The notes: generated by a model from the letters alone, not told the origin. Counted from the stretch's first letter, positions 1 to 46,237 are shown. The stretch: 64,000 nucleotides of DNA from Candidatus Daviesbacteria bacterium GW2011_GWA1_41_61 (GCA_000997385.1 LCBT01000001.1:177493-241492), one strand, 5' to 3'. Program-made: numbers and translations.

Positions 1-1543
1 GATAGGCTATCTCATTGCCTTGATGGGTCAACTCCACTAAATACTCTCCCTGGCGGTTGATGCCCGACCAAACGCTGTTGGAATAATCAATGTGGGGAGA
101 AAAGTAACTCACCGGAATATTGACACTGGTTCCTTGAATAAGTCCCACCATAGATCCAGGTAGAGCATTTTGGTTCAACCACCTAACAACCTGGTAATAG
201 GCATTGCCGAAGCTATTCCCATAGTAAGGAATATTAGCCTTTTGGGCCCCCTGTAAACCACCAATAAAAATATTAAAGTAAACATTTTCATTAGGATGAA
301 GGTTGACCATCACTAAAAGATGAGGAATGAATAATAATAAAACAACCATGCCTAAAACCGATTGAGAAAGAAAATTTTTGCCCACCCAACGTTTAAACAA
401 TCGAACCAAGACTTGCGCCCCTAAACCAGACAGAAGCGCCATCGCCGGTAAAAACTCCATAATCTGCCTTACCCCTCCGTAAATTGAACTGCCAGGCAGG
501 CTAACTCTTAAGATAGGAATGATCAGCCAAATTAACCACAAAAGAGCTGTTTTTTCTTTCTCCTTTCTTAAAAAAACACCTCCTACGCCTAAAATTGTTA
601 AAAAGAGGATTATGGGCGGAGTAGTAATGGCAATCCAAGTTATAGGGAAAAGATTAAACCCTCCCCAAGTGAGATAGTGGGGCTGACCTAAACCTCCAGT
701 ACCAATCTCCTTATAATACCTAAAAATATTTAAAGTATGAGCTAAGGGATCTTGCCACAGATATGGCCAAGTAATAAAAAAAACCGCTCCAGCTATAACC
801 GGCGATATAATCAAAAGAAATAAAAAATGTCTGGGAAGTCTGACTACTGCTTTGACGGGATGCAAAATAGCCTGAGGGTATCGCCAAGCCAGCCAAAAAG
901 TCAAAATAAACGGTAAAAATAAGATATTAAATTTAGTCCCCAAGGCTAAAGCAAAAAATAATATAGCCGCCAACAACCACCGCCAGTCATACCTTTTTAA
1001 ACTATTCCAGAAGGCCCAAATTGTTCCAGCATAAAAAGCAGCTTCAGCGGGATCTTTAATATTAAAATGCGATTCGGCAAAAAATAAAGGATAAACCCCC
1101 AAAGAGATACCAGCCACTAAAGCAGCCAATAAACCATAAGATTGAGCAGCAAAAACCACCACCACCAAAACTAACAATGTTCCGCTTAAAATATTAAATA
1201 GATGATAAGATTCAATATCCCCCAAAACTGCCAATTTTTGGTAAAAAATAAAATTGGCAGTAGCAGCTAGTATGCCATTTAAGGGAGGATGACCGCTATC
1301 GTTTTTTATAAAAAATTGACCGGTAAAAGAGTTATCTTGGTAAAAGCTGCGCCGTTTAATAGGTTTCACATCTTGGTAATTTAAATCACCACTTAGAAAG
1401 TAATTTAAATAGGCCTGTCCTCTGGTAAAATGAATTGGCTCGTCCCAGGAGATCCCGTAGTGAGACAGTGTTAAAAACGAGACAATAAAGAAAAGAATCG
1501 GAATTATTAACAATCCCGAAAAATTTTTTAAAGTAATTTTCAT
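1..1543 (-). CDS. GT-C fold membrane glycosyltransferase, ArnT/PMT-like (GT39/GT83-type); C-terminus cut by window edge
   Basis: Open minus-strand frame from ATG 1543..1541 to the window edge. N-terminal TM helix is followed by HYGISWDEPIHFTRG, the first-loop D/E motif of ArnT/PMT-type GT-C enzymes. ATGA overlap with the stop of the upstream methyltransferase. Confidence 0.6.
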   Translation of the reverse strand, partial: MKITLKNFSGLLIIPILFFIVSFLTLSHYGISWDEPIHFTRGQAYLNYFLSGDLNYQDVKPIKRRSFYQDNSFTGQFFIKNDSGHPPLNGILAATANFIFYQKLAVLGDIESYHLFNILSGTLLVLVVVVFAAQSYGLLAALVAGISLGVYPLFFAESHFNIKDPAEAAFYAGTIWAFWNSLKRYDWRWLLAAILFFALALGTKFNILFLPFILTFWLAWRYPQAILHPVKAVVRLPRHFLFLLIISPVIAGAVFFITWPYLWQDPLAHTLNIFRYYKEIGTGGLGQPHYLTWGGFNLFPITWIAITTPPIILFLTILGVGGVFLRKEKEKTALLWLIWLIIPILRVSLPGSSIYGGVRQIMEFLPAMALLSGLGAQVLVRLFKRWVGKNFLSQSVLGMVVLLLFIPHLLVMVNLHPNENVYFNIFIGGLQGAQKANIPYYGNSFGNAYYQVVRWLNQNALPGSMVGLIQGTSVNIPVSYFSPHIDYSNSVWSGINRQGEYLVELTHQGNEIAY

Positions 1544-2322
1544 GCCTTGATTCCACTGTAAGAGATATAAAGGGAAGGTTGAACAAACCACCCGGCTTGG
1601 CTATCAATCTTTTTAATTAACCTTAAAAAAAGACGGGCTAAATGATTGTTAACAAGAGCTGATGCTAAAATAGGAAAAAAGAATACAGTAAAGCCAGGCA
1701 AGCCTTGTCTTTTTACAACCTTTAAATCAAAACTGTGGGCTAGTTGAAAAATTCTGGATGGGCTAAAGCTAACAGCGGGAATTTCACTGTGCTTTTGACC
1801 TCTCAATTTACTAATTAATCCACCTAGGTTAAAAATATTATATCCTAAAGGGTTTCTTTCAATAATCATCAAACGTCCTCCCGGTTTTAAAACCCGGGTA
1901 ATTTCTTTCATGGCTTTTTTCTGATCTTGATCATCTGATAAATACATTAAAGTCGTCACCATAAAAATCATATTAAAGGAGTTATCTTTAAAAGGAAGCT
2001 GACGGACATCGCCTTTAAAAGCTCTACCCCTTGGAGCAAGCTGTTGGTTGTAAAGATCGACATATTTTGGGGCAATATCCACCCCAACAATCTTGATTTT
2101 AGAAAACCTGTTAAGAAGTTCCCCTGACAACCGCCCATAACCACAACCAATATCTAATACCTGAACACTTTCTTTATTTTCCACCTCACTGCTGATCTGT
2201 TCCAACATCCACTGGTGTAAATAATCATTAATGACGGATGGTACTGACTTAAGCAAAACCCCTTCTATTCTAGTACCGTATTTTTGACTTCTTTGCTCCC
2301 AAAATTTTTCCAATGTTTTCAT
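1540..2322 (-). CDS. class I SAM-dependent methyltransferase
   Basis: 260 aa ORF. VLDIGCGYGRLSGELL matches methyltransferase motif I, and downstream acidic motif II is present (IVGVDIAP). Confidence 0.8.
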   Translation of the reverse strand: MKTLEKFWEQRSQKYGTRIEGVLLKSVPSVINDYLHQWMLEQISSEVENKESVQVLDIGCGYGRLSGELLNRFSKIKIVGVDIAPKYVDLYNQQLAPRGRAFKGDVRQLPFKDNSFNMIFMVTTLMYLSDDQDQKKAMKEITRVLKPGGRLMIIERNPLGYNIFNLGGLISKLRGQKHSEIPAVSFSPSRIFQLAHSFDLKVVKRQGLPGFTVFFFPILASALVNNHLARLFLRLIKKIDSQAGWFVQPSLYISYSGIKA

Positions 2323-2323
2323 A

Positions 2324-3244
2324 CTACTTGCTTCTTTTAAAAGAGCTGACTACATCAAATCCAAAAAGTTTAATTACTAAAAGGAACATCAAACATTCAG
2401 CCAAAAACAGGTTAAAACGGAAAGCTAAAGCTAAAAAAGAGGCCAAGGAAAAATCATAAAAAATTTTTAAAAGAAAGGCCAAGGAAAAATCACTCACTCC
2501 TAAACCTCCGGGAGCAACCGGTGTCAAAAAGCCGACAACCCAAGAGGCAGAAAGTAAACCGCTGATATCTAAAATCCGGGACAAGGGGTTATCAACAAAA
2601 GCTGAAATAAGTAAGAAAAAAGCTACCCCGTATAACAAAAAAAAGCCAACGGATAAACCAAGCAAACTTAAATGCCCTCTAAAACCATTTTTATAAATGA
2701 CTTCCGGTAGGTATTTTCCCAAGTAAGGCAATCGGGGCAATAGAGCAAAAACTTTAACTGGTTGGATAAAGACAACGACTGATAAAACAACTGCCGCTAC
2801 TGAAAACAACCATAAAGGAGGAAAAAACTTGGCCGCTATAGGTAAAGCTAAGAGACTGACTATTATCGCGCCGGCTAGATTATAGTAAGCTTCCAAAAAT
2901 ACCGTTGACAGGCCTTCCTTAACTCCTAAGCCTAAACCTTTGGAAAGATAAACCCTAACTACATAATGTAAAACTACGCCTGGGATAAACCTACCAAAGT
3001 TGGAAACAATAAAGACCCGAAAGACTTCTTTAAAAGAAGTTTGAAAAGATATTGCCTGTAAAATTTTATACCAAAAATAAGCTCCCCCCACATAAGTGCT
3101 AGCCAATACCACTAAAGAAGCCAGGAGCAGGATAAAGTTAGCTGAAGCAATCTGATTAAAAACTAAAGTCCACTTTTGGATAATAGTCCAAACTAAAAAA
3201 AACAAAATGGAGGTCGGGACTAATATTTTTAAGCCTTTTTGCAT
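2324..3244 (-). CDS. polytopic membrane protein, UPF0104 / flippase-like (LPG-synthase TM-like) family
   Basis: 306 aa with about 8 predicted TM helices and a PGGLGVSD motif. This family is usually found next to GT2 genes. The ORF starts 1 nt after the methyltransferase start. Confidence 0.45.
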   Translation of the reverse strand: MQKGLKILVPTSILFFLVWTIIQKWTLVFNQIASANFILLLASLVVLASTYVGGAYFWYKILQAISFQTSFKEVFRVFIVSNFGRFIPGVVLHYVVRVYLSKGLGLGVKEGLSTVFLEAYYNLAGAIIVSLLALPIAAKFFPPLWLFSVAAVVLSVVVFIQPVKVFALLPRLPYLGKYLPEVIYKNGFRGHLSLLGLSVGFFLLYGVAFFLLISAFVDNPLSRILDISGLLSASWVVGFLTPVAPGGLGVSDFSLAFLLKIFYDFSLASFLALAFRFNLFLAECLMFLLVIKLFGFDVVSSFKRSK

Positions 3245-3309: not shown

Positions 3310-5274
3310 ATGAAAATGCGCCAGCGCCTAAGATTGCCTTCTCTTCTGATTGACGTCCTACTACTGACACCAATACTTATTTTTAGCGCCTGGATTTATC
3401 TCATACCCCCTTTCCAAACATTTGGATATCATCCGTTATTTTCCGACGATGCCATCTTTGCTATCTTAGCCCGTAAGGTTTTAGAACTGGGACCAGTGGG
3501 GGCTTTCCATTTATCCTGGGGACCACTCCTCTCCTGGCTTATGGTTTTTTTAAACAAATTTCTCTCTATACCACTAGAGGATGGAGGAAGAGTTATTACC
3601 GGGATAGCCTTATTTTTAAGAATTATCCCCGCTTATTTTTTAGTCAAACTAATATTAAACAAAACAGCCGCTTTTATTGCCATCATCTTTGTTGCACTTT
3701 ATCCGGTAATAAAAATACCTCAAGAAGCTGCTTTGGCAGAAGGATTATATTCTCTGATTATTTTCAGCGGATTTTTATTTTCCTACCTCGCCCTTAAAAC
3801 AGAAAAAATAGTTTGGTATCTTCTGGCCGGGATTACTTGGGGAGTAGTCTATCTGGCTAGGCTGGAAGGTTGGCTCTTTTTAATACCCTTAATGTTCTTG
3901 ACCGCTTTAAAGCTTTTCTACGAGCCCAAGAAAAAATTGGTAACCATAAAATTGTTGGCAGTTTCTATTCTGGCTACTTTTACTATCTCCCTACCTTATC
4001 TCACTTTTGTCCATCAAGTTTATGGCTCTTGGAATTTAAACCCAAGGTTAAACATTATCATGACAGCGCCTGTTAGTACCTTTGTACCTTACAAGGATTA
4101 TAACGGCATTACTACTTTAGCCCAAGCTTACTTCTCCGGTGACCCTAAATATTACAAATCCAATCTTTGGCATCCCACACCCTTTCTTTTTTGGAGAGCG
4201 CTGGGACGGCATTGGTCAACACTGTCAATTACTCCTACTCTCTACTTTAAATTTTTTAAAGAGACCATTCCGCTACTAACACTATTGGGGGGATTAGGCA
4301 TAGTCTTAACTATTCTGGCTATTTTTCGCCATAAACTTCAACTAATACTTATCGGAATAAGTTTTTTTGCCTTAGGCTTCTCTTTGCTCGACTTTTCCCT
4401 AGTCTCTTTAGAATTTTTATCACCGGTAATATTTAACCCGGAAGCTACTTTTTGGCGGCTTCTTGATCAATTTTGGCGGATGCTCTCCACCAAAGGATAT
4501 TTTCCTGGGATAGCCCGGGATGTTATAGTTATTGTTTCCAGTTTGTCACTGCTGATAATTAAGAGGGGAGAAGTCAAAAAATTCGTGCAGCAGTTTTATC
4601 TGCAAAGACTGAAAATTTATCTACCATTATCTCTGTTCTTCGGCTTTCTACCCCTTTTATTTCATAACTTTGCCACTAAATATGCTGCTTGGGTTGTACC
4701 GGTGCTGGTTATCTTTGCCAGCTTCTTTATCAGCTCAGTTTGTTCCTCACTAATTAGAGTGTTGCCTAAAAAATACCCCTTCTTACCTGCCCTACCGATT
4801 GATAAAATAATTCCCCTTTTGACTGTTTTCAGTCTGTTGTGGATGATTAAGCCATTGGTTGATCAATCTTTAGACACTAAGTATAGCCAATACAAACAAA
4901 ATAATTTTTTTTACGATTTACGAAAAAAGCCTGGTTTAGTCATTTTAAAAGATCATGGACCAGGAGCTAAAATTGCTGTTTTTTATGAAGCTCCGGTGTT
5001 TTATGCTCAGGGAGAACTGTTTTACTTTATGACTGACAGCAATGTTCCACTGGAAGAAACGCTAAATTATCTCGAGGAAAATCAGGTAGATTATCTGGTC
5101 GCCGATAGGGATCAAGCCTATCTGACTCACAAACCACTACGGCCCTTAATGTTGGCAGAAACAAAATTGTCCAACTGGCAGATGATCTACTCTGATCCCC
5201 CGCCTGGCACAGACATCTTGGTAACGGATACCCATACTGATATGCTGGTGACAGTCTGGAAAAGAATAGATTAA
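3310..5274 (+). CDS. GT-C fold membrane glycosyltransferase with C-terminal soluble domain (ArnT/PMT-like)
   Basis: 654 aa. About 12 N-terminal TM helices with FSDDAIFAILARK in the first loop (DD/DE motif). C-terminal ~200 aa is hydrophilic. Confidence 0.5.
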   Translation: MKMRQRLRLPSLLIDVLLLTPILIFSAWIYLIPPFQTFGYHPLFSDDAIFAILARKVLELGPVGAFHLSWGPLLSWLMVFLNKFLSIPLEDGGRVITGIALFLRIIPAYFLVKLILNKTAAFIAIIFVALYPVIKIPQEAALAEGLYSLIIFSGFLFSYLALKTEKIVWYLLAGITWGVVYLARLEGWLFLIPLMFLTALKLFYEPKKKLVTIKLLAVSILATFTISLPYLTFVHQVYGSWNLNPRLNIIMTAPVSTFVPYKDYNGITTLAQAYFSGDPKYYKSNLWHPTPFLFWRALGRHWSTLSITPTLYFKFFKETIPLLTLLGGLGIVLTILAIFRHKLQLILIGISFFALGFSLLDFSLVSLEFLSPVIFNPEATFWRLLDQFWRMLSTKGYFPGIARDVIVIVSSLSLLIIKRGEVKKFVQQFYLQRLKIYLPLSLFFGFLPLLFHNFATKYAAWVVPVLVIFASFFISSVCSSLIRVLPKKYPFLPALPIDKIIPLLTVFSLLWMIKPLVDQSLDTKYSQYKQNNFFYDLRKKPGLVILKDHGPGAKIAVFYEAPVFYAQGELFYFMTDSNVPLEETLNYLEENQVDYLVADRDQAYLTHKPLRPLMLAETKLSNWQMIYSDPPPGTDILVTDTHTDMLVTVWKRID

Positions 5275-5297: not shown

Positions 5298-6320
5298 TTA
5301 TTTATCCTTAAAGCGGTTGGCCAGTAAATTAAAGATGGCTGATAAACGAAGGTCAAGCAGGCTATTATATTCAATAAAACAGGCCCAGCGGCAAGACTTG
5401 CATGGAGTCTGAGGCAAATGACGATAAGCTTCTTTAACCCCCATCTTTAAGCAGTTTTGGCCGGGTAACGATGTGGTCAATCTGGTACAAGGATATAAAT
5501 TCCCCCGGCAGTCTAAAGCTACCATCTTTTTACCGGCTAAACAACTAGGATGGCCTTCGACCTTATCGGAGGAAATATCATTTTTATGATCAGGCCAATT
5601 AGACATTAAACGATAGGTCTCCTGTGAATAAAAAATGCGGTTAGTCTTATTTTTCTTTTCCCTAATAATATCCATCAAAGCTTTTTTAGTCCTATCCTCC
5701 CAAGCCTTAGCCAATTTTAACCCCCCATCACCACGGAACCGGGGATAAAGTGGACTTATTTGAACAAGAGTTTGATATTTTTTGGCCAACTCCAAAAGTC
5801 TGGGCCACTCATTCAAATTAGCATCAGTTAAAGTACAGCAAAAATGAACTGGAATACCGGCTAAAGTTGCTGCTTCAACTGCTGCCAAAGCTTTTTTAAA
5901 TGAACCCTTTCCCCGGTATTTATCGTGGGTTTTTTCGCAGGCACCATCCAAACTTATAGAAAGGTTATTTAAAAGACGTAAAGCCTTTAGATGGTAGGGC
6001 ACTAAAATTCCATTGGAGTTAAGACCGACCTCAAAACCCAAATTTACCGCCATTTTAATTATTTTATCAATATCTTTATGCAGAAGTGGTTCCCCGCCGC
6101 TAATACCCAACCTCCTGACACCTAAATCATAAAATTCCTTAAATATTTGCTTTATTTGCTGGTAAGACAATTCTCCCTTTTCGCTGTAATATTTACCAAA
6201 GCAATAAGAGCAGCGGAGGTTACATCTCTCGGTGATAGTAAACAAAAGGATATAGGGCTTGGCAATAAACGGTAACGCCGAAAGGCCTATTTTGGGAATC
6301 TTCAACTTAAGATTATTCAT
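5298..6320 (-). CDS. radical SAM enzyme with C-terminal SPASM/twitch domain (paralog A)
   Basis: CNLRCSYC (CxxxCxxC) at the N-terminus and GGEPL. The C-terminus carries extra cysteines: CLAGKK...CRGNLYPC...CKSCRWAC. Confidence 0.85.
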   Translation of the reverse strand: MNNLKLKIPKIGLSALPFIAKPYILLFTITERCNLRCSYCFGKYYSEKGELSYQQIKQIFKEFYDLGVRRLGISGGEPLLHKDIDKIIKMAVNLGFEVGLNSNGILVPYHLKALRLLNNLSISLDGACEKTHDKYRGKGSFKKALAAVEAATLAGIPVHFCCTLTDANLNEWPRLLELAKKYQTLVQISPLYPRFRGDGGLKLAKAWEDRTKKALMDIIREKKNKTNRIFYSQETYRLMSNWPDHKNDISSDKVEGHPSCLAGKKMVALDCRGNLYPCTRLTTSLPGQNCLKMGVKEAYRHLPQTPCKSCRWACFIEYNSLLDLRLSAIFNLLANRFKDK

Positions 6321-7762
6321 TATTTAGTAAATCTTTTTAAAACAAAAAAACTGCTGGTAACTAAAAATTCTTTCCAACCCACTCTTACCGGTATAATCTT
6401 TCTCTTTAAGCTATAACCGTTCAAAACATCTTTTAAAAATTTTAACACTGATTTAGGGATTGGCACCTTAAGTAAGATAGGTAAATAGCTTCTGAGAAAG
6501 GGAAAAATTACAATAAAGGTAAAAAGAGAAGCAAATTTTTCAATTTTTTCTCTATCCACGACCTGAATGGGAATTCTTTCAAACCAGGATAAAAATTCTG
6601 TTTCACTAGAGATAAGGTTCATCTTTTTAGCTACTTTACCTAGCTGGGTATCTAAAAACGGTAGACAAAAAGAGACATAAGTGGCATCAACTCCGGCTTT
6701 TAAGTTAAGATCCAAAGTTTGCAGTTCATCTGCAAATGTTGATGTCGGTATCCCTACCATATTATAAGCGCTAATGGCTAAACCATATTTTTTAGTAATA
6801 TTACAAGCCTTGATGATCTGAAAGTTAGTAATATTTTTATTTAAAACTTCTTTTCTGATTCTCTCACTGCCGCACTCTACAGCCAGATGTATACTAACAC
6901 ATCCAGCTTTTTTTAAAAATTTCACAAACCTCTCATCTATAAAAACCACCGAAGTGACTATAGTAAAAGGAAGATTTATTTTCCGGGTGTATTTTTTGGT
7001 AAAGTCCGTCAACCATTGCCTATCAAAAGGAAAGACATCATCAAGAAAATAAAAAAATTTAGCATTAAAATTTCTTTTCAAATCCTCCAATTCAGCTATC
7101 ACATTATCGACAGTTCTGGTCCTGATAATTTTTCCTTTACCCTGATATAAATGATGATAGCGGTGATTAAAACAAAAAGAACAGTTAAAGGGACAACCAC
7201 GGCTGGCCATGACAATTTTGATAGGAGAATATTTAAATTGAGGAAAACTACGAGTCAGGGATCGATCTGGAAAGGGCAGACTATCCAAATCCGCCACCAA
7301 CGGACCAACGCTGTTTTTATAAACTGAGTTTGTAAACTCGCTATTTTTATTTTTTATCCACATATTAGGAACTTTATTGATACTTTGCTTCTGGTCCAGT
7401 TTATCAACCAGTTTGAGTAAGGCAATTTCCCCTTCCCCCCGGCAGATAATATCAATCCCATCCTGATTTATAATTTCCGGGTTATAAGTGGGAGTTGGGC
7501 CTCCCCAAATAATGAGGATTTTGGGAAAAGTTTTTTTCACTTGCTGGGACAAGTTTAAATAATATTTGTAATCAGTGTTCATACAGCTGATGGCAAAAAG
7601 ACCGATATTTTTTTCCTTAATACATTGACTAACTTTTTCAAAAGAGGAATCGGAAAGGAAAACTTGATGACCGGATGTTTTTAAAAAGCTGGATAGATAT
7701 AAAATGCCTAGTGGTTCCATGGCACTATAAACGTCTTTTTTAATGGCAAAAAGAATATTCAT
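6320..7762 (-). CDS. B12-binding (class B) radical SAM enzyme
   Basis: 480 aa. N-terminal Rossmann-like cobalamin-binding region (IIWGGPTPT), then RGCPFNCSFC radical SAM motif. Confidence 0.8.
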   Translation of the reverse strand: MNILFAIKKDVYSAMEPLGILYLSSFLKTSGHQVFLSDSSFEKVSQCIKEKNIGLFAISCMNTDYKYYLNLSQQVKKTFPKILIIWGGPTPTYNPEIINQDGIDIICRGEGEIALLKLVDKLDQKQSINKVPNMWIKNKNSEFTNSVYKNSVGPLVADLDSLPFPDRSLTRSFPQFKYSPIKIVMASRGCPFNCSFCFNHRYHHLYQGKGKIIRTRTVDNVIAELEDLKRNFNAKFFYFLDDVFPFDRQWLTDFTKKYTRKINLPFTIVTSVVFIDERFVKFLKKAGCVSIHLAVECGSERIRKEVLNKNITNFQIIKACNITKKYGLAISAYNMVGIPTSTFADELQTLDLNLKAGVDATYVSFCLPFLDTQLGKVAKKMNLISSETEFLSWFERIPIQVVDREKIEKFASLFTFIVIFPFLRSYLPILLKVPIPKSVLKFLKDVLNGYSLKRKIIPVRVGWKEFLVTSSFFVLKRFTK

Positions 7763-7781
7763 AGTGCATTTTTCAAGTACA

Positions 7782-8825
7782 TTAATGACCTCTTATGGTA
7801 CTTAGTATTTGCGCAGAAATTATTTCTAAGTCAAAATTAGCAATCGAACTAAACTCGTTGAAACAAGGGAAATAGCAGGCATAACAGGGAAAATTGGCAC
7901 AATTTTCCCAGGCCTTTTTCAACCCGACTTTGCGAAAATCTAAAGCTGGAAAGATATCTATCAGTTGGACACAAGGGTAGACCCTGCCATCAGCATCGAT
8001 AAACATCATAAAACGTCCTGCCGCACAGGGAATATATTTAAACTTTGGTTTTTCCCGAAGATAAATGCGTCTTTTATGGTCCGGCCAATCAGCCACCAAC
8101 TGATAAACTTTTTGGGAAAAAAGGATCGGCGCCCCTTTTTTCTTATGCTCGATAATTCTCCTGGCTGCTTTCCTTAATTCTTTATTCTCCGCCATAAAAC
8201 GGTCCGAGTCTTTCTTACCCTCCGCTTGCTGAAAAAGAAAGTTAAATTCCGCCTGGATTCCTTTTTGTTTGGCAAATTCCACAATCCAATCAATCGCTTC
8301 AATCTTACAGCTGTGGCGGGTAATCACTGAATTGATATGGGTTTTAATACCGGCCTCTAAAGCTACATCAATACCGGTGACAATCCTTTTAAACGAGCCT
8401 TTTCCCCGGTTGGCGTCATTGATCTTTTCCGAACCGTCAATTGAGACACAAATCATATCGGCCTGTTTTAACTCTTTTATCTTCAAAGGTATCAAGGTAC
8501 CATTAGTGTTAAAACCGCACTCGATACCGTTAGCTTTAATTCTGGCAATAATTTGCCCAATATCATTTCGAGTCAAAGGTTCCCCGCCGCCCAAGGTAAT
8601 GGAACGGGTACCCATCTTACCTAATTCGTCAATTAACCCCATTAACTCTTTAGTTGTAAAATCTTTCTCTTTGCTTTGAAAATACTGTCCATAGCAATAA
8701 CCGCACTTTAAAGTACATCTGGAGGTAATATTTAAAACTACTGTCAAAGGAGTTCTGCCCCCGCTCAGTTTATCTTTGACTAGAGTTGACATGTAAGCTG
8801 CCCGATTACTAATTCCCATATTCAC
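7782..8825 (-). CDS. radical SAM enzyme with SPASM domain (paralog B)
   Basis: ITSRCTLKCGYCYGQY and GGGEPL. C-terminus has CAAGRF...DGRVYPC...CANFPCYACYFPC. Shares RGKGSF and FSQ..Y....WPD with the neighbouring paralogs. Confidence 0.85.
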   Translation of the reverse strand: MNMGISNRAAYMSTLVKDKLSGGRTPLTVVLNITSRCTLKCGYCYGQYFQSKEKDFTTKELMGLIDELGKMGTRSITLGGGEPLTRNDIGQIIARIKANGIECGFNTNGTLIPLKIKELKQADMICVSIDGSEKINDANRGKGSFKRIVTGIDVALEAGIKTHINSVITRHSCKIEAIDWIVEFAKQKGIQAEFNFLFQQAEGKKDSDRFMAENKELRKAARRIIEHKKKGAPILFSQKVYQLVADWPDHKRRIYLREKPKFKYIPCAAGRFMMFIDADGRVYPCVQLIDIFPALDFRKVGLKKAWENCANFPCYACYFPCFNEFSSIANFDLEIISAQILSTIRGH

Positions 8826-9849
8826 TTCTTCCTATTGCCGCCTTAATATAATTTATTAAAACCGGCAGCTTCAAATTCATCAGATGACCAAAATCATGGT
8901 GGTAAACTTGATAACAACCAGTGCATGGATGGTTGCGAGTTACTTTCCAAGCTTCAGCTACACCCACCTTTAAGACATTTTTAGCTTTGACTTTATCAAT
9001 CAAATGGGGACAAGCCCAAAACCGACCGTCAGCATCAATTAAACCAAATAACTTACCCGCCGGGCAAGGGGGCATTCCCAAAGGGGCCGGCGCATTCATC
9101 ACCCCTTCAATCTCAAAATCAGGCCATTTTAAAACACTCTCATAAGCGGTTTGAGAAAAAAGGATTGGTGCTCCTTGCTTTTTTTGGGCAATAATGTATT
9201 TTATCACCTGTCTAAACTGTTTGTCAGTGGGTTTAATCGAAATTTCAGTTTTATCCCCAAAAATGTTACTGATAGCTAAAGAAATATGTAACTTAAAATC
9301 TAATTTTCTAGCTACATTGATCATATAATCTAAATCCGCTAAATTATATTTATGCACTACCATATTAACACGCACCTGGATCCCGGCCTTTTTAGCAGCT
9401 TTTATAGCCTGAAGTGTTTTTAAAGCACTGCCTTTACCGCGCAAAATATCGTGATGATTATTTTTACCGTCTAAACTTAAGGTCAAACATTGAATATTTT
9501 TAAGCTCATTAGTCTTTTGAGGAACCAATATTCCATTAGAAGTTAAGTCAACACTTAATCCCTGTAATTTAGCATAGTTTATCAACTCTCCGATATCCGG
9601 ACGAAGAAGCGGTTCCCCCCCACAAAAGTTGATCCTTAGGCAACCTGCTTTCTTTAAGCCTCCAACAACCTTTTTGATTTGGTCAGTATTCATCTCATCT
9701 TTAGAACTTCGGGTAAAGTAGGCTGCATAACAATGTTTGCAACGGAGATTACAACGGTTGGTCACATTAAAAATAACGGTTAGGGGCGTAGCTTTTCCAG
9801 TAACTTTGAGCAAAATTAATTTTGTAAAAAACAACAAATTAAGGAACAT
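8809..9849 (-). CDS. radical SAM enzyme with SPASM domain (paralog C)
   Basis: VTNRCNLRCKHCYAAYF and CGGEPL. C-terminus has CPAGKLFGLIDADGRFWACP...CTGC. Overlaps the downstream gene by 17 nt. Confidence 0.85.
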   Translation of the reverse strand: MFLNLLFFTKLILLKVTGKATPLTVIFNVTNRCNLRCKHCYAAYFTRSSKDEMNTDQIKKVVGGLKKAGCLRINFCGGEPLLRPDIGELINYAKLQGLSVDLTSNGILVPQKTNELKNIQCLTLSLDGKNNHHDILRGKGSALKTLQAIKAAKKAGIQVRVNMVVHKYNLADLDYMINVARKLDFKLHISLAISNIFGDKTEISIKPTDKQFRQVIKYIIAQKKQGAPILFSQTAYESVLKWPDFEIEGVMNAPAPLGMPPCPAGKLFGLIDADGRFWACPHLIDKVKAKNVLKVGVAEAWKVTRNHPCTGCYQVYHHDFGHLMNLKLPVLINYIKAAIGRSEYGN

Positions 9850-9852
9850 TTT

Positions 9853-11376
9853 TTAAACATTAAGATAATCTTTGATGTATCCCAAAAAGAAGCCGGGGTG
9901 TTTAAAAAAGTTCATGTCTGAAGCTAAAGCCAAATAAAATCTAGGCCTTTGAGTTACATCAATAACAAGATTATTTTTATTAACCTTCACAAATTCTTCG
10001 ACAGCCCATCTAATAATTTCTTTTTTCTCTTTTGGACCCATATTGTCAATTAACGGCGCCGAAGGATCAAGATGGTTTTGGTCACGATATTTCACCAACC
10101 CCTCCGGGTTTTTTTCCTCAACAATTCTAGCCAGTTCTGTCCCTGCAGCCGGAGTAGGAAAATAAGGATAAACAATATAAGGTTTAATCTCTTTGACTAA
10201 ATTTACAGTGTCTTCGATCTCTTTTTTTCCTTCTCCGGGAAGACCAATAATACAAAAGGCTACCATTCTTAGTCCTACTTTATGGAGTAATTTAGCACAA
10301 CGTCTTACATCGTCAACAGTATTGCCTTTTTTAATCAACTGTCTGATCTGGGAGTTACCAACTTCAACTCCAACAGCAATATGCTGGCAACCGGCTTCTT
10401 TAGCCAGCCTCAAAGTAGTTTCATCAACCATCTCAGCCCGTGTTTGAGCCGACCAAAAAATTGGCAGATTCTTTTTCATAAGCAGCCGGCAAAATTTTCT
10501 GGCCCGCTTTTTATCAATGAAGAAAATATCATCACAAACATAAAAATATCTGGTTTTATATCTTTTGTAAGTCTCTTCAATCTCCGCCACCATATTTTCC
10601 GCCGAACGGACCCTCGGCCGGTATCCCATGCTGGTATGGCAACCACAAAAAACACATTGAAAAGGACAGCCTCTGGATCCATAAATTCCCTGGAAAGTAT
10701 GTGGCGGCATCTGCTCATATCCATCCAACAGATGGCGGGCCGGGAAAGGCAATTTATCAAGATCTATTAAGGCCGTCCGGTCAGGATTATGAACAACCTT
10801 ACCCTTAAAATTCTTCCAGCTTAATCCTTTAATTTTGGAAAAGTCATCTTTCCCTTTATCAATGGCCCGGACCAACTCGACCACTGTTTGCTCCGGTTCC
10901 CGCCTTAACGCAAAGTCCATTACTGAAAAATCACCGGCAGTTGATGGATCTATAGCACAATGTAAACCCCGATTGGTACTACCTTCAAAGACAGTCACCA
11001 CCTTAGAGTTTAAACTTTTAGCCATTTTAGCAATTTTATTACCGGCAGTTAAAGTAGTATTAAAAACGCTAACAATTAAAATATCTGGATTATATTCTCT
11101 CAAGTAATCTTTAATTTCTTTCCAAATTGGATCACTGTTGCTGTTTAAACGTTTTAAATAGCTATTGTATTGATTAGTTAAAGCAGTAACGTTGATGTGA
11201 TCAGTATTCCCTAAAATAGTCTTTTTCCCGGGGTCATAATCAGCGTTATAAATAAGTGGTTTATACCCTGCTTCTTCTAAAGTAGCCGCTACATAACAAC
11301 AACCCGGAGGATAATGGACCAAAGAGGCATTCTGAAACCGATAAAAAGGAGGGTTAATAATTAAAATTTTTTTCAT
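9853..11376 (-). CDS. B12-binding (class B) radical SAM enzyme
   Basis: 507 aa. N-terminal B12-binding-like domain, then GSRGCPFQCVFCGCH radical SAM motif. Confidence 0.8.
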   Translation of the reverse strand: MKKILIINPPFYRFQNASLVHYPPGCCYVAATLEEAGYKPLIYNADYDPGKKTILGNTDHINVTALTNQYNSYLKRLNSNSDPIWKEIKDYLREYNPDILIVSVFNTTLTAGNKIAKMAKSLNSKVVTVFEGSTNRGLHCAIDPSTAGDFSVMDFALRREPEQTVVELVRAIDKGKDDFSKIKGLSWKNFKGKVVHNPDRTALIDLDKLPFPARHLLDGYEQMPPHTFQGIYGSRGCPFQCVFCGCHTSMGYRPRVRSAENMVAEIEETYKRYKTRYFYVCDDIFFIDKKRARKFCRLLMKKNLPIFWSAQTRAEMVDETTLRLAKEAGCQHIAVGVEVGNSQIRQLIKKGNTVDDVRRCAKLLHKVGLRMVAFCIIGLPGEGKKEIEDTVNLVKEIKPYIVYPYFPTPAAGTELARIVEEKNPEGLVKYRDQNHLDPSAPLIDNMGPKEKKEIIRWAVEEFVKVNKNNLVIDVTQRPRFYLALASDMNFFKHPGFFLGYIKDYLNV

Positions 11377-11394
11377 CAGAGTAACTTTAAAATT

Positions 11395-12405
11395 CTAAAG
11401 TTTTCTCTCTTTAATGTAAAGAGCCAATCCGTCAAAAAAAGAGACCGCTGCTAAAAGATCCCGCAGATATGAAGCATAATAAGCTCTAAATAAATTTAAT
11501 TTAGACAAACCTTTCTTTTTTAAATAAGAAAGAAACGCCGAGTATAGAAAAAAATGAACAGCTAACAAACCAGCCACCAAAATTAAAACTATCTGGCTTA
11601 AAAATAGTTGATTGACAATAGATAAAATAAAAGCCACCATTAAACCTACCAGGCTAAAAAAAGAAGCGCCGATAGCAATATGAAGTTGTTTTCCTTGATG
11701 GTTGTTACAAACTAGTATCTGGGGATTTTCCAAAAAAAATCTGGTTGACTGCTTACCAAAATAATACTGATGCCGCAAAAAATCCTTAAGACTCCGCTTA
11801 AAATGGTGTTTCACCCCGTTATCTTTTAACCACATCACTTTATAATGACGGGCAATTTGATAACCTAAAAACATATCCTCACAAACAGAATATCGGGTAG
11901 GAAAACCCCCTGCTTTCCAAAAACAAAACTTCCGGCAAGCCATGTTGTTAGAAAGAAGAGTCACCGCCTCCCCTTTTCTTTTACGTCGGCGGAAAAATAA
12001 CTCTTCACAGGAAAACCTTTGCCAAAAGCTATCATCTATCCCGGCACTATAACCTCCACCTACTGCCCCAACTTTGATGTCAGAAAAAGGAGCCAATAGG
12101 TTTTTTAACCAATCTTCTCCGGGGACACAATCGCTATCTAAAAAGGCCAAAATTTCTCCCCGGGCTTTCTTGGCCCCTAGGTTTCGGGCCACAGATACTC
12201 CTTGGTGAAAATGTTTTAAAAAAATAAGGTTGTTAATTTTTAATTGAGGTTTAATTTGGTTAAGATAAGATTTCAAATTATCTTTAGAACCATCATCAAC
12301 GATAATTACCTCTCCTGGTTTTAAAGACTGGTTACTAAGCGCCAACAAACACTTGCCGATGGTCAAAGTAGCATTAAAGGCAGGAATAATAACACTAGTC
12401 TTCAT
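11395..12405 (-). CDS. GT2 family glycosyltransferase with C-terminal TM helices
   Basis: SVIIPAFNATLTIGKCL...VIIVDDGSKD and LAFLDSDCVPGEDW (DxD region). Hydrophobic C-terminus. Confidence 0.75.
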   Translation of the reverse strand: MKTSVIIPAFNATLTIGKCLLALSNQSLKPGEVIIVDDGSKDNLKSYLNQIKPQLKINNLIFLKHFHQGVSVARNLGAKKARGEILAFLDSDCVPGEDWLKNLLAPFSDIKVGAVGGGYSAGIDDSFWQRFSCEELFFRRRKRKGEAVTLLSNNMACRKFCFWKAGGFPTRYSVCEDMFLGYQIARHYKVMWLKDNGVKHHFKRSLKDFLRHQYYFGKQSTRFFLENPQILVCNNHQGKQLHIAIGASFFSLVGLMVAFILSIVNQLFLSQIVLILVAGLLAVHFFLYSAFLSYLKKKGLSKLNLFRAYYASYLRDLLAAVSFFDGLALYIKERKL

Positions 12406-13381
12406 CTTGTTGACCGGTTAATTTACCATTTAAACCCAATTTCTCTTCAATGACATAGGGAGGACGGTCTTTGCTTTGTGAGTAGATACGGCTAATGTAT
12501 TCACCCATGATCCCTAAAAAAATAAATTGCAGTCCCATTAAAAAAGTGATACTCACAACCGGTGTGGTCCAACCGGGTATAACGCTATTAGAATTGATAA
12601 TTTTTAACATAATTAAAATTCTACTGATTGAAATATAGGCAGCATAGGAAATACTGAAAAAGGAAATTATTAAACCGGCAAAGATGGTCATTTTTAAAGC
12701 CAGAGAAGAAAAAGAGAGCAAGCCATCAAAAGCTAAATGAAAAAGTTTAGCCAGACTATATTTGGTTTTTCCAGCCATTCTGGGTGGCCGGTGATATTCA
12801 ATACCCATTTGCTTAAAGCCAACCCAGGTACGAAGACCGCGGATAAAGGGCCTATCCTCTTTAAATTTGCGCATTTGAGCCACCACTTTTTTATCCATCA
12901 GACAAAAGTCTCCAGCATCTAAAGGAATATTTTTTAAAGGAGACATCTTTAAAAGTAACCGGTAAAACGCTTTATAGCAGATCTTTTTTAGCCACATCTC
13001 CTCACGATCTTCCCTTATTCCATAAATTACCTTAAAACCCTGGCGCCATTTTGCCAACATCTGGGGAATAATTTCCGGCGGGTCCTGTAAATCAGCATCC
13101 ATCACGACCACTGGATTGCCGTGAGCATATTTTAACCCGGCTACAATAGCAATCTGATGGCCAAAATTACGGGCAAAAGAGATAATTTTTACCCGGGGAT
13201 CTTTCTTTCGCAGCTTCTTTAAAATAGATAAAGTATTATCAAAGCTACCGTCGTTGATACAAATCAGTTCAAAATTAGCTCCAATTTTTTTACAGATACT
13301 CAAGATTCTTGCATAAAGTATGCCAGCGCATTCTTGTTCATTGTACATCGGTACCACAAAGGAGATAAAAAGACTTTTCAT
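12395..13381 (-). CDS. GT2 polyprenol-phosphate sugar synthase (DPM1/GtrB/ArnC-like) with C-terminal TM anchor
   Basis: FVVPMYNEQEC...ICINDGSFDNT and VVVMDADLQDPPE. Two C-terminal TM helices, as in GtrB. Confidence 0.75.
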   Translation of the reverse strand: MKSLFISFVVPMYNEQECAGILYARILSICKKIGANFELICINDGSFDNTLSILKKLRKKDPRVKIISFARNFGHQIAIVAGLKYAHGNPVVVMDADLQDPPEIIPQMLAKWRQGFKVIYGIREDREEMWLKKICYKAFYRLLLKMSPLKNIPLDAGDFCLMDKKVVAQMRKFKEDRPFIRGLRTWVGFKQMGIEYHRPPRMAGKTKYSLAKLFHLAFDGLLSFSSLALKMTIFAGLIISFFSISYAAYISISRILIMLKIINSNSVIPGWTTPVVSITFLMGLQFIFLGIMGEYISRIYSQSKDRPPYVIEEKLGLNGKLTGQQDED

Positions 13382-36355: not shown

Positions 36356-38080
36356 TTAAAATTCTGATGAAGCGGTTACAAAGGCTGGAAGGGCGTCTAG
36401 CCCCTTATGAAGCTGGTAATTATCTAAACTCTTTGCTTCCTCTGGTGATCCGATAAACAATACTTTTTTATTTAATCCCCCAATAAAACTTTCAATTTCA
36501 CTCTCCGGGATATGACCGATGTAAACATTATCAATCCTTTTAAATTCATACTTTCCTAATCTGTCTCTTTGCTTATTTTGAGCAATAATAATGCTCGGAT
36601 CTGTTTGGGAATAAACCGGGTAGGCGTATTCAATGTTATCAATTCTGTCCGATACTAAAACGTAATCAAAGTTGTCCTTGTTTGACATTATATATTGGGC
36701 GGCGATTTTGGCAGGAAAAGACCAAAATCTGCTTAATTCATTAGATGTTAAAAAAAATATCCTGTTAATAAAAAATGTAAATTGAATGAAAAAGATAAAT
36801 ACCACTGTCCAAAGTAAAAATTTCATTCCCTTTTCTTTCCTGTGACTTACCAAAACGTAAAGTCCTGTCGCCGAAAAGATTATCAGCGGAGGAAGCATTA
36901 AAGAGCTCCTTAATGCATGAGGTTCCAGCATCAGTGCTGCCGGGAGAGGAGCTATTAGAAGCCATCCCAAAAGTAAAATAAGTAATCGTCTATTACTTAA
37001 AGCAATAAACGCTAAACCTATTACCAACAGAACAATCTCTATTAAGTAAAGCTGCCCCATTAAAGACATATTGTGGCGGGGATTTCTATCGCCATGGATA
37101 AAAAGAAAATCTAAAGAAAAATGTGATAAATATCCTTCGCCAATCAAGAGGCTGTTTTCAATATATTTATTATGAAAAAGCGGCAAAAGGTATACCGGCA
37201 TAGAACTAACCGCTCTCTCCCCGTTTATTTTCTGCACAATCTTTTCTTGCAGTTCCTGCTGTCCAAAAATATTAATAGCTAAAAATCTCTTGTCGGATCC
37301 GGTGGTAGTAGATTGAACTGCAACCAATGAAAATCCTACTAACAAAATTAAAGCGGAAATAATTACCGGTAATAGATATTTACCCTGCAGATACTGTCTC
37401 AAATTTCCGGAAGTAAAAATTAGCACTAACAAGATTAAAGGAATTGTTAATTTATAGGTCGGATAAGTATGAACAGCGATGGAAAAACAGATTGCAAAAA
37501 TGACTAACAGCCACGGTTGGAATTTTGATTTAATGAACCCTCTCTCCGATCTAAAGATCGAAGTTTCGGGTTCTTGTCTTGCGACAATAAAAGTAAAAAT
37601 TCCTAAAACAGATAAAAACAAAGCAAAATGGGTTTCATAGCCTCCCCGGCTTAAATTTATATCCCATGGTGATAAGGCCGCAAACAAAGCGGTGATGGCA
37701 GCAACTTTTTCATCAAACCAATGTCTTGATAATAAATATAAAACTATGACAATTCCTAATCCGGAAATAATTGACAGCATCCTTACTCCTGGGGCCGAAG
37801 GCCCAAAGAGGGAGACGAAGGGGATGGAAAAATAGACGTATCCGGCAGGACGTCCCCCGCTCATTTTAAAAGTCAGAGGAAGGAAATCTCCAAGCTGATC
37901 GTGCCCTGTTTTGAGAACAGAATAAGTATCATAAACTGTCGTCAACTCGTCTCCATACAAAGCCGGAGGACTGCCGGAGATATTAACAATCCTTAAAAGA
38001 GCGGCCAAAAGTAAAATTAACCATAAATAAAGTTTAATTTGTAATATTTTTCTATTTAAAAGATTTTTAATTATTTTCAT
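36356..38080 (-). CDS. GT39/GT83-like GT-C glycosyltransferase
   Basis: 574 aa. ALYGDELTTVYDTYSVLKTGHDQLGDFLPLTFK, a DE-motif variant. The C-terminal soluble domain resembles that of the WDE paralogs. Confidence 0.6.
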   Translation of the reverse strand: MKIIKNLLNRKILQIKLYLWLILLLAALLRIVNISGSPPALYGDELTTVYDTYSVLKTGHDQLGDFLPLTFKMSGGRPAGYVYFSIPFVSLFGPSAPGVRMLSIISGLGIVIVLYLLSRHWFDEKVAAITALFAALSPWDINLSRGGYETHFALFLSVLGIFTFIVARQEPETSIFRSERGFIKSKFQPWLLVIFAICFSIAVHTYPTYKLTIPLILLVLIFTSGNLRQYLQGKYLLPVIISALILLVGFSLVAVQSTTTGSDKRFLAINIFGQQELQEKIVQKINGERAVSSMPVYLLPLFHNKYIENSLLIGEGYLSHFSLDFLFIHGDRNPRHNMSLMGQLYLIEIVLLVIGLAFIALSNRRLLILLLGWLLIAPLPAALMLEPHALRSSLMLPPLIIFSATGLYVLVSHRKEKGMKFLLWTVVFIFFIQFTFFINRIFFLTSNELSRFWSFPAKIAAQYIMSNKDNFDYVLVSDRIDNIEYAYPVYSQTDPSIIIAQNKQRDRLGKYEFKRIDNVYIGHIPESEIESFIGGLNKKVLFIGSPEEAKSLDNYQLHKGLDALPAFVTASSEF

Positions 38081-40068: not shown

Positions 40069-40070
40069 CT

Positions 40071-46233: not shown

Positions 46234-46237
46234 CGAA

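Follow-up and report, generated by a model that had tools for sequence, protein, structure and literature searches.

The radical SAM block and its surroundings

Positions 5298-11376 of the 64,000-nt stretch of Candidatus Daviesbacteria DNA analysed here (the window) hold five consecutive minus-strand genes, R1 to R5 (Table 1). Each encoded protein carries exactly one CxxxCxxC motif and scores 81-100 bits with the Pfam Radical_SAM profile (PF04055; cut-off 29.5), which places all five in the radical SAM superfamily, as originally predicted. The gaps along the block are -1, 19, -17, 3 and 18 nt. This arrangement is not a product of chance, since it is conserved in other genomes.

Table 1. Genes of the radical SAM block and neighbouring genes in the window.
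Feature	Position	Strand	Description
Class I SAM-dependent methyltransferase	1540-2322	-	260 aa
LPG_synthase_TM ('flippase-like') protein	2324-3244	-	306-aa membrane protein, seven TM-like segments
GT-C-like protein	3310-5274	+	654-aa polytopic membrane protein, convergent with R1
R1	5298-6320	-	340-aa twitch-type radical SAM paralog; accessory; end of a long minus-strand gene run
R2	6320-7762	-	480-aa B12-binding-domain radical SAM enzyme; lineage-specific accessory
R3	7782-8825	-	347-aa twitch-type radical SAM enzyme; core; third in the order R5-R4-R3 (public annotation: ATG at 8819, 345 aa)
R4	8809-9849	-	346-aa twitch-type radical SAM enzyme; core; immediately downstream of R5 in every case
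R5	9853-11376	-	507-aa radical SAM enzyme of class-B (B12-binding-type) architecture; most conserved member, cassette anchor
GT2a	11395-12405	-	336-aa family-2 glycosyltransferase, 2-3 C-terminal membrane segments; most constant R5 neighbour
GT2b	12395-13381	-	328-aa GtrB/ArnC/PgfS-type polyprenyl-phosphate hexosyltransferase

The flanking genes encode GT2, GT4, Wzx, PIG-V-like and GT-C-type (PMT_2/YfhO/PTPS_related) proteins. A profile scan of the window ORFs, excepting a partial ORF at 1-1540 and the region 63468-63938, detected no epimerase, dehydratase or aminotransferase. The block thus lies, as had been proposed, among glycosyltransferase and Wzx genes in a window devoid of classical NDP-sugar tailoring genes.

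Because the gaps span only -17 to +19 nt, the block has no room for a precursor peptide, again as predicted; it contains no intergenic precursor ORF, every ORF of at least 20 aa being nested within one of R1-R5. The same lack of space applies to related loci, in 11 of which the core genes abut.

R1, R3 and R4 are twitch-type paralogs

The three proteins of about 340 aa are paralogs, as the original prediction held, with full-length identities of 33% (R1/R3 and R1/R4) and 34% (R3/R4); PF04055 scores are 99.9 bits for R1 and 91.4 bits for R3. Two motifs had been said to unite them, RGKGSF and FSQ..Y....WPD. The core of the second, SQ..Y....WPD, is indeed common to all three, but R1 begins it with FYSQ, and RGKGSF is exact in R1 and R3 but reads RGKGSA in R4. 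Among 37 family members, R137-G138, S232 and W242 are invariant or nearly so.

The C-termini had been described as SPASM/twitch, and the twitch half of that description stands. Full SPASM membership was judged by the seven-Cys motif CX9-15GX4C...CX2CX5CX3C...C (two auxiliary clusters) together with a Pfam score above cut-off. R3 gave the only match to the SPASM profile (PF13186), at 19.3 bits and thus below the cut-off of 21.5; R1 and R3 contain CX2CX3C (residues 314-321 in R3) and not CX2CX5CX3C. Only four C-terminal cysteines are invariant in the 37 members, in the pattern C-X17-C...C-X2-C. Since no more than these four are kept, we class R1, R3 and R4 as twitch-like rather than full SPASM proteins, with the truncated SPASM-like C-terminus and single auxiliary [4Fe-4S] ligand set of the BtrN, MoaA, SkfB and BlsE type. 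The cysteine pattern presumably resembles the ligand pattern of the BtrN twitch domain.

The best structural relative of R4 is BlsE, yet its fold is equally close to SkfB, SuiB, anSME and PqqE. Many top NCBIfam matches are likewise peptide maturases (WgkB, MftC, StsB), and class-B radical SAM enzymes are also known from RiPP clusters such as L094, all of which would suit RiPP or protein maturation with the substrate peptide encoded elsewhere. We consider this reading poorly supported and highly improbable. The maturase scores are all below cut-off and arise mainly over the shared radical SAM core: the best, for MftC (TIGR03962), is 119.5 against 265 bits, and assignment to MftC, PqqE, anSME or the sactisynthases was rejected. 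Pfam profiles matched no PqqD/RRE domain in the five proteins, and, unlike the Clostridium RiPP cluster L094, the block comes with no such domain, peptidase or ABC exporter. Its consistent partners are GT2s, and neither the block nor the abutting core genes elsewhere leave an intergenic ORF.

A cofactor pathway (heme d1/Ahb-like, Moco-like or mycofactocin-like) located by chance inside a glycosylation island is equally poorly supported and, in our estimate, marginally more improbable still. NirJ, AhbC/D, MoaA and MftC profiles do match at 90-120 bits, and among NCBIfam profiles GT2a scores best with the mycofactocin glycosyltransferase MftF (103 bits against a cut-off of 280), but all these scores fall far under their cut-offs, and MftA/B/D/E, siroheme genes and MoaB-E are absent from the window and the related loci. 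In the profile search, none of the five proteins reached any curated family cut-off, those of the anSME, peptide-maturase and cofactor families included, in agreement with the original prediction.

R5 and R2 are class-B enzymes

The two proteins of about 500 aa, R5 and R2, had been credited with N-terminal cobalamin-binding-like domains. Both do have the class-B architecture, in which a Rossmann-type B12-binding domain is joined N-terminally to the radical SAM core (in R2, PF02310 at 62 bits and PF04055 at 81.2 bits), and they are 26% identical over 355 aa. Of the enzymes with solved structures, the diol dehydratase AprD4 is closest to both in sequence. In a neighbour-joining tree, R2 clusters with an additional B12-type enzyme from an Omnitrophota locus (98% support), while R5 forms a separate clade of its own (100%), as far from HpnJ as from BchE and a RiPP class-B enzyme, and sister to neither AprD4 nor HpnJ.

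The best curated profile for R5 is HpnJ (TIGR03471), at 180 bits against a cut-off of 577.6, and R5 is 28% identical to Caballeronia HpnJ. We rejected R5 as an HpnJ, given a score so far under the cut-off and a tree in which HpnJ groups with another enzyme, from locus L008 (94%), and R5 does not join bona fide HpnJ. The public annotation of R5 as a MiaB/RimO methylthiotransferase, judged by an N-terminal UPF0004 three-cysteine cluster, a TRAM domain and the profile score, was also rejected (TIGR00089, 29.3 against 251 bits); two alignments contained no conserved N-terminal cysteines.

The inference from class B to C-methylase, made in the original prediction, is not established: the best match of R5 is AprD4 among solved structures and HpnJ, linked to a proposed ring contraction, among curated profiles, and its scores with methylases are well short of the thresholds (PhpK 123.5 against 600, KedN5 72 against 700, HpnR 62 against 650 bits). 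AprD4 has the same B12-type fold but is not known to use cobalamin, and the fold alone would not decide cobalamin dependence. R5 may use cobalamin, possibly for methyl transfer. The window contains no cobalamin riboswitch, and CPR bacteria are not known as cobalamin makers.

These comparisons also bear on whether a lipid is modified instead of a sugar, the polyprenol carrier or a membrane lipid being methylated, cyclised or cross-linked by enzymes of HpnP/HpnR, GrsA/B, Tes or ladderane type. We regard this as unlikely. Scores for these families are far under their cut-offs and no better than those for unrelated families. Tes and the GDGT ring synthases were rejected (NF045702, 70.6 against 450 bits), which leaves the proposed analogy with GDGT ring or tetraether synthases without specific support. 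Glycosyltransferases and sugar-pathway genes are what the cassettes consistently contain besides the radical SAM genes, and none for isoprenoid or lipid synthesis occur among them.

A conserved cassette with two membrane glycosyltransferases

The five genes had been treated as a unit. Comparison of related loci (designated L008, L009 and so on) redraws it: the conserved unit is GtrB-GT2a-R5-R4-R3, in that order, and R1 and R2 are lineage-specific additions. R1 has orthologs in three other loci only (L011, L012, with two copies, and L014), and R2 orthologs (758-789 bits) are confined to the Daviesbacteria-type loci L011 and L012. The conserved order occurs in Daviesbacteria, a Patescibacteria SAG, Omnitrophota (3), Planctomycetia (2) and Desulfobacteraceae loci as well as in Deltaproteobacteria or 'Proteobacteria' MAGs. 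R5 is 47-87% identical across loci with conserved order (CPR, Omnitrophota, Planctomycetota, Desulfobacterota and other MAGs). The CPR proteins are 62-70% identical to those of Omnitrophota, Planctomycetota or Desulfobacterota, which argues for one shared, universal substrate. R3 orthologs score 374-679 bits in 11 loci, and R3 matches 434 representatives of 50% clusters at E<=1e-30.

An ortholog of GT2a lies within 6 kb of the R5 ortholog in 16 of 17 loci, small radical SAM paralogs are found near it in 13 and a GtrB-type GT2 in nine, with one more at 8 kb. GT2b precedes GT2a in L013 and L015-L019, whereas L009, L014 and L020 have it at another place in the cassette; no GtrB accompanies the R5 ortholog in L012, L021 and L023, and twitch paralogs are lacking in L008 and L022-L024. 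The radical SAM genes are linked to glycosyltransferases, but the persistent partners are two membrane GT2s rather than GT-C arrays as such.

Residues 4-317 of GT2b align with Synechocystis GtrB (PDB 5ekp) over the full length (277 bits, E 1.5e-81) and the protein matches ArnC structures at 145-155 bits; with three C-terminal TM-like segments (220-290), it belongs to the GtrB/ArnC/DPMS type, although it stays below the equivalog cut-offs (PgfS 243 against 500 bits, ArnC 166 against 529). GT2a matches PF00535 at 103.7 bits and has TM-like segments at 240 and 259.

The GT-C-like protein next to R1 scores 25.3 bits with PMT_2, just below the cut-off of 26.1, and has ten TM-like segments; L011 has an ortholog at the same position (756 bits) and L012 a partial one. 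It is a candidate for the transferase of the finished lipid-linked sugar. Cassettes of other phyla carry YfhO-like or DUF6541 proteins of 717-830 aa. The LPG_synthase_TM protein (PF03706, 61.5 bits), a candidate translocator, has family members in the cassettes L014 (138 bits) and L008, and the family also adjoins hpnI/hpnJ/hpnK in real hopanoid loci.

Comparison with known systems

The HpnI/HpnJ/HpnK/HpnL-type hopanoid module brings together members of the same three Pfam families, namely a membrane GT2, an LPG_synthase_TM protein and a radical SAM enzyme with a B12 domain, and HpnJ, the closest curated profile to R5, serves as a precedent for the reshaping of a lipid-attached sugar. However, GT2a and HpnI are only 30% identical over 53 aa, a generic GT2 similarity, and the LPG_synthase proteins cannot be aligned pairwise. 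The present cassette has neither an HpnK deacetylase nor hopanoid genes, and has 2-4 extra radical SAM enzymes that hpn lacks.

GtrA/GtrB/GtrC, CsbB/GtcA/YfhO, PgfS/PgfM and ArnC/ArnD/ArnE-F/ArnT offer a second likeness: GT2b is a full-length GtrB/ArnC/PgfS homolog, and the cassettes contain GT-C-type proteins (PMT_2-like, YfhO-like) and candidate flippases. In the Arn pathway, ArnD illustrates that a lipid-linked monosaccharide can be edited before flipping. The literature found on these three-component glycosylation systems mentions no radical SAM enzyme; here, by contrast, 3-5 of them separate the lipid-sugar synthase from the GT-C-like protein, with a further membrane GT2 as an obligatory partner.

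Among antibiotic sugar-tailoring enzymes (AprD4, BlsE, DesII, BtrN, GenK), AprD4 is nearest to R5 and R2 and BlsE to R4. The archaeal calditol synthase Cds, which turns a hexose head group into cyclopentyl calditol, shows in concept how radical chemistry could contract the ring of a lipid-linked hexose; its context is an archaeal tetraether lipid and not a GtrB/GT2 cassette.

A proposed route for radical tailoring of a sugar

At roughly even odds, we propose that a conserved cassette, spread horizontally, produces an unusual sugar destined for extracytoplasmic glycosylation, and that the block supplies its radical SAM half. In the interpretation we favour, radical chemistry tailors a hexose, either lipid-linked or NDP-linked, within a Gtr/YfhO-type extracytoplasmic glycosylation route; the substrate and its lipid- or NDP-linked state, each reaction type, cobalamin use and the acceptor are inferred. 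The predicted tailoring of a glycan or its lipid carrier is thus borne out insofar as the radical SAM genes belong with glycosyltransferases, while the chemistry and the substrate are putative.

GT2b would transfer a hexose from an NDP-sugar to polyprenyl phosphate at the cytoplasmic face, and GT2a, also membrane-anchored, may work on that same lipid-linked intermediate or use a second lipid as acceptor. The sugar would then be reworked by the invariant trio (R5, R4 and R3) through 5'-deoxyadenosyl-radical hydrogen abstraction, with further steps from the accessory R2 and R1 in Daviesbacteria. R5 could catalyse the committed carbon-skeleton step, be it C-C rearrangement or ring contraction, 1,2-diol dehydration or cobalamin-dependent C-methylation. 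R4 and R3, with their four-Cys auxiliary cluster, may be responsible for redox-type chemistry, for instance oxidising a hydroxyl to a ketone, epimerising an unactivated carbon or removing a carboxyl group. The product would be translocated by the LPG_synthase_TM-type protein or Wzx and transferred by the adjacent GT-C-like membrane protein to an envelope acceptor.

The recurrence of YfhO-like, DUF6541 or PMT_2-like large membrane proteins and of LPG_synthase_TM in the cassettes supports such a route, these being components of known three-component glycosylation systems such as CsbB/GtcA/YfhO (PMC5836110, PMC7389260). That radical SAM enzymes can act on lipid-linked sugars has precedents in HpnJ and Cds (PMC13459092). 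A hydrophobic segment at the C-terminus of R2 (414-431) and a hydrophobic N-terminal helix in R4 are weak hints of membrane association. Counting against the route are the loci that lack GtrB or twitch paralogs, the absence of a specific relationship between R5 and HpnJ, the generic or missing similarity of GT2a and the LPG_synthase_TM protein to their hpn counterparts, curated family scores that all stay below cut-off, and the points on cobalamin made above.

The same chemistry might instead act on a soluble NDP-sugar before transfer, with GT2a and GT2b loading the finished sugar and the radical SAM enzymes standing in for the classical toolkit of 4,6-dehydratase, epimerase and aminotransferase missing from the window. 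A lipid-linked substrate is the less precedented of the two, because the radical SAM sugar enzymes with solved structures all take soluble substrates; AprD4, BlsE, DesII, BtrN and viperin are all among the matches. In L017 and L018 an NDP-sugar epimerase/dehydratase separates GT2a from R5, directly upstream of the latter, and L008 has a nucleotidyltransferase. Yet R5 is most tightly linked to a membrane-anchored GT2 rather than to a nucleotidyltransferase or dehydratase, the hydrophobic elements of R2 and R4 speak for the membrane, and HpnJ, Cds and ArnD indicate that lipid-linked sugars are modifiable after transfer. We therefore hold tailoring before transfer to be possible but rather unlikely.

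A three-enzyme core that accompanies the same two membrane glycosyltransferases in many distant phyla points to a pathway, not described so far, in which a lipid-carried sugar is chemically altered before surface display. In keeping with the claim of a novel pathway type, the searchable literature yielded no description of such a cassette.

The accessory genes of other cassette versions belong to sugar pathways, the epimerase/dehydratase and nucleotidyltransferase above among them, which also supports the proposed route. L009 encodes a hexapeptide acyltransferase, and L017 a TylF-type methyltransferase and TPP-dependent E1 alpha/beta. The class I methyltransferase in the window (Methyltransf_25 83 bits, Methyltransf_11 81 bits) has class I counterparts in the cassettes L009 and L014 and could provide an O-methylation step.

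Five radical SAM genes form a compact block within a glycosylation island

The host, Candidatus Daviesbacteria (CPR/Microgenomates), is represented by a genome from groundwater. The window proteins that were looked up returned identical entries in Daviesbacteria GW2011_GWA1_41_61, GWA2_40_9 and GWC1_40_9. Five consecutive genes, R1–R5, each encode a protein with exactly one CxxxCxxC motif and a Radical_SAM Pfam match of 81–100 bits. R1, R3 and R4 are paralogs over their full length (33–34% identity), and R2 and R5, both of the B12-binding type, share 26% identity over 355 aa. The gaps in the block measure -1, 19, -17, 3 and 18 nt. The remainder of the window is a single very large glycosylation island. 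Its genes encode numerous GT2 and GT4 enzymes, two flippases of the Wzx type, one PIG-V-like protein and about a dozen GT-C-type membrane proteins (PMT_2, YfhO and PTPS_related families). Among the window ORFs scanned, none encodes an epimerase, dehydratase or aminotransferase, and the window contains neither a cobalamin riboswitch nor a match to any other Rfam family. ORFs, motifs, Pfam matches, paralogy, gaps and flanking genes therefore confirm the original prediction of five tandem minus-strand radical SAM genes in a glycosyltransferase island with no classical NDP-sugar tailoring genes among the scanned ORFs.

Features of the window discussed in the text (positions in nt)
Feature	Position	Strand	Length	Remarks
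Class I methyltransferase	1540-2322	-		Family recurs in other cassettes
LPG_synthase_TM protein	2324-3244	-		Family recurs in other cassettes
Ten-TM protein	3310-5274	+	654 aa	Convergent with R1; PMT_2 just below cut-off
R1	5298-6320	-	340 aa	
R2	6320-7762	-	480 aa	
R3	7782-8825	-	347 aa	345 aa from the ATG of the public annotation
R4	8809-9849	-	346 aa	
R5	9853-11376	-	507 aa	
GT2a	11395-12405	-		GT2; 2-3 C-terminal membrane segments; best profile MftF, below cut-off
GT2b	12395-13381	-		Full-length homolog of Synechocystis GtrB (PDB 5ekp; 277 bits) and ArnC (145-155 bits); C-terminal membrane segments
Two proteins without Pfam match	38077-43550	-	663 and 1159 aa	Mid-island, between PMT_2 and Wzx-type genes
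Five consecutive membrane-protein genes	44995-52523	-		
Sixth radical SAM-type gene	58340-59845	-	501 aa	Fused MazG domain, residues 35-107
NUDIX hydrolase	59913-60578	+		Divergent from the adjoining 501-aa gene

In one contig (L001, JGI 3300025308; 11031-12037) that is otherwise identical, R3 is split into ORFs of 260 and 75 aa, which is either a frameshift variant or an assembly error.

The enzymes belong to the radical SAM superfamily but to no curated family

A search with HMM family profiles placed all five proteins in the radical SAM superfamily but assigned none to a curated family: no NCBIfam equivalog cut-off was reached by R1–R5, and the Pfam and NCBIfam matches were at superfamily level only. 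An alignment of 37 members of the small paralog family revealed seven invariant cysteines, three of which form the radical SAM motif. The other four (C262-X17-C280, with G-X4-C, and C309-X2-C312 in R4 numbering) would suffice to ligate one auxiliary cluster, and their arrangement fits a twitch-like pattern. The SPASM/twitch C termini originally proposed thus held in their twitch-like form; a full SPASM domain was rejected, as its seven-cysteine motif is absent and only these four C-terminal cysteines are invariant. The SPASM Pfam model did not match R1 or R4 and scored below cut-off in R3. At E ≤ 1e-30, the R3/R4/R1 family comprises 434 representatives of 50%-identity clusters.

R5 (KKR81028.1 and identical entries) is publicly named 'protein involved in methylthiolation of isopentenylated A37 derivatives in tRNA'. 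This name is not supported by its domain content, by its MiaB/RimO methylthiotransferase profile score (29 bits against a cut-off of 251) or by the R5 alignments, in which no N-terminal cysteines are conserved.

A three-enzyme core recurs with two glycosyltransferases across phyla

Metagenomic homologs of R5 and R4 (50–87% identity) are numerous and share contigs. Scanning one genome per species gathered 80 loci, onto which the window proteins were mapped with phmmer; for the high-GC loci L009, L019 and L020, gene content was taken from phmmer score tables and database gene calls. The order GtrB-type GT2, GT2a, R5, R4, R3 is kept in Daviesbacteria (L011, together with L012, a Gammaproteobacteria-labelled locus syntenic with the window throughout), an unclassified MAG (L013), Desulfobacteraceae (L014), Omnitrophota (L015, L016, L018), Planctomycetia (L017, L019), a 'Proteobacteria' MAG (L020), a Patescibacteria single-cell genome (L021) and a hydrothermal Deltaproteobacteria MAG (L009/L010). 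Sixteen of the 17 loci with an R5 ortholog carry a GT2a ortholog within 6 kb of it, 13 have the twitch paralogs and nine a GtrB-type GT2 (one further at 8 kb). R5 is 62–70% identical between CPR bacteria and Omnitrophota, Planctomycetota or Desulfobacterota, and the trio as a whole is 60–70% identical across phyla that otherwise share little. Such unusually high R5 identity between distant phyla suggests that R5 spread horizontally and that its substrate is shared.

Orthologs of R1 are confined to L011, L012 and L014 and those of R2 to L011 and L012; in other lineages the additional radical SAM genes of the B12 type are different ones. The five-gene block is therefore a lineage-specific elaboration of a three-enzyme core; of the unit envisaged in the original prediction, R5–R4–R3 recurs with the GT2 genes, and R1 and R2 do not extend beyond these lineages.

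A RiPP or cofactor pathway, as an alternative role for the enzymes, is contradicted by this context. ORFs of 20 aa or longer in the block all fall inside R1–R5, and the gaps of -17 to 19 nt leave no room for a precursor peptide, as had been anticipated. In 11 loci, core genes are separated by at most about 100 nt or by other recognisable genes, and no precursor was found there either. By contrast, a genuine class-B RiPP cluster (L094) has small ORFs and genes for a PqqD-family protein, a peptidase and an ABC transporter.

Several of the loci have features of their own. L012 (CAYRCR010000001.1, 290 kb, labelled uncultured Gammaproteobacteria; R5 82% identity) matches the Daviesbacteria window with high scores across GT-C, GT2, GT4, PIG-V, Wzx and radical SAM block genes, and its label probably reflects an error in binning or labelling. 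The Planctomycetia version (L017/L006, CAZWJT010000004.1, 14628-21373) has five twitch-type radical SAM genes, a 363–367-aa protein without Pfam match, a TylF-type methyltransferase, a GT2 and TPP-dependent E1 alpha/beta genes; similar E1 genes of some antibiotic pathways add two-carbon branches to sugars. Two Aenigmarchaeota MAGs (DPANN archaea; L027, L036) encode R5-clade relatives at 32–34% identity; in their vicinity lie several more radical SAM genes of the B12 type, together with genes for a Wzx-like protein, GT2, GT4 and a class I methyltransferase. Archaea too, therefore, have glycosylation clusters rich in radical SAM genes.

The cassette resembles hopanoid genes in architecture

The top curated profile for R5 is HpnJ (180 bits), followed by BchE (137 bits). 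In bona fide hpn loci, genes for HpnI (a GT2), HpnJ (a class-B radical SAM enzyme) and LPG_synthase-domain proteins lie together, paralleled here by GT2a, R5 and the LPG_synthase_TM protein. Pairwise, however, R5 and HpnJ share 28% identity over 395 aa, GT2a and HpnI 30% over 53 aa (generic similarity only), and the two LPG_synthase proteins show no significant similarity. An NJ tree with bootstrapping puts the R5 orthologs in a clade of their own (100% support) and pairs HpnJ with a different enzyme, from locus L008 (94%); R5 is as far from HpnJ as from BchE and from a RiPP class-B enzyme (25–27% identity). Orthology of the cassette to HpnI/J/L was rejected on these grounds, and we regard the hpn module as an architectural analogy rather than a sign of family membership.

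The HpnJ-grouping enzyme of L008 (ERZ21831104 ctg97553c, a 10-Mb contig; 762-2099) is a B12-type radical SAM protein of 433–445 aa, flanked by a PMT-type GT-C gene on one side and two GT2 genes on the other; hopanoid genes are absent from the ±10 kb shown. L008 thus holds a second, distinct radical SAM/GT2 pairing beside its R5 ortholog.

A candidate pathway of radical tailoring on a lipid-linked sugar

Full-length homology to GtrB and ArnC, together with the C-terminal membrane segments, identifies GT2b as a predicted polyprenyl-phosphate glycosyltransferase. The position of the ten-TM protein is conserved in L011 and L012; other phyla have YfhO-like or DUF6541 proteins of 717–830 aa in its place. 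The cassette has the parts list of three-component extracytoplasmic glycosylation (GtrABC, CsbB/GtcA/YfhO), in which a lipid-sugar synthase works with a translocator and a transferase of the GT-C type (PMC5836110, PMC7389260), and differs from it by the inserted radical SAM trio. Radical chemistry on a lipid-linked sugar has precedents in HpnI/HpnJ and Cds (PMC13459092), and the cassette plausibly works in an analogous manner without belonging to those families.

We propose, with a probability of roughly one in three, that R5–R4–R3 with GT2a and the GtrB-type GT2 constitute a widespread, unrecognised pathway in which successive radical reactions turn a polyprenyl-phosphate-hexose into a skeleton-altered sugar that then serves as a GT-C donor. 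The hexose would most likely still be bound to polyprenyl phosphate when the trio reworks it. From the reaction types that we infer, R5 would perform the skeleton-changing step and the two twitch enzymes, each with a predicted auxiliary cluster held by four cysteines, redox-type steps, yielding a carbocyclic, C-branched, C-methylated or deoxygenated sugar.

The main rival, itself plausible, is that identical chemistry takes place at the NDP-sugar level. Accessory genes of other cassettes belong to sugar pathways (NDP-sugar epimerase/dehydratase, nucleotidyltransferase, TylF-type methyltransferase, TPP-dependent E1 alpha/beta and hexapeptide acyltransferase). Modification of the lipid moiety, the polyprenol carrier option of the original prediction, found no specific support.

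Tailoring of the lipid-linked sugar would be radical SAM sugar chemistry of a known kind, here embedded in lipid-linked envelope glycosylation. To our knowledge, carbohydrate radical SAM chemistry is described almost exclusively for antibiotic pathways and for two enzymes acting on lipid head groups, HpnJ and Cds, both still awaiting reconstitution, and we know of no earlier radical SAM tailoring of a lipid-linked donor for envelope or protein glycosylation. If the proposal is correct, this would be the first such case known to us. It would extend over CPR bacteria, Omnitrophota, Planctomycetota and Desulfobacterota, and DPANN archaea have related glycosylation clusters rich in B12-type radical SAM genes. 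A fixed trio wired to a GtrB-type lipid-sugar synthase would show envelope or protein glycosylation drawing on radical chemistry, with sugars beyond the reach of the usual NDP-sugar enzymes. The cassette also defines new subfamilies, covering several hundred proteins that carry no annotation or a wrong one, and bears on how CPR bacteria of minimal metabolism build very large surface-glycosylation repertoires. Full-text literature, which included few subscription-journal papers, held no account of this cassette or of radical SAM enzymes coupled to GtrB/YfhO-type systems; with such partial coverage, this absence is suggestive only. The five-gene core is well defined and experimentally tractable, a compact set open to expression and assay.

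Other genes in the window

In the run of five membrane-protein genes, three match PTPS_related (PF10131, GT-C-like), one of them just below cut-off, and the other two (418 and 564 aa) have no match. The MazG nucleotide pyrophosphohydrolase fusion protein, adjoining the NUDIX hydrolase gene, is borderline for Radical_SAM (29.0 bits against a cut-off of 29.5), and its sole NCBIfam match is the PA0069 family at 26 bits.
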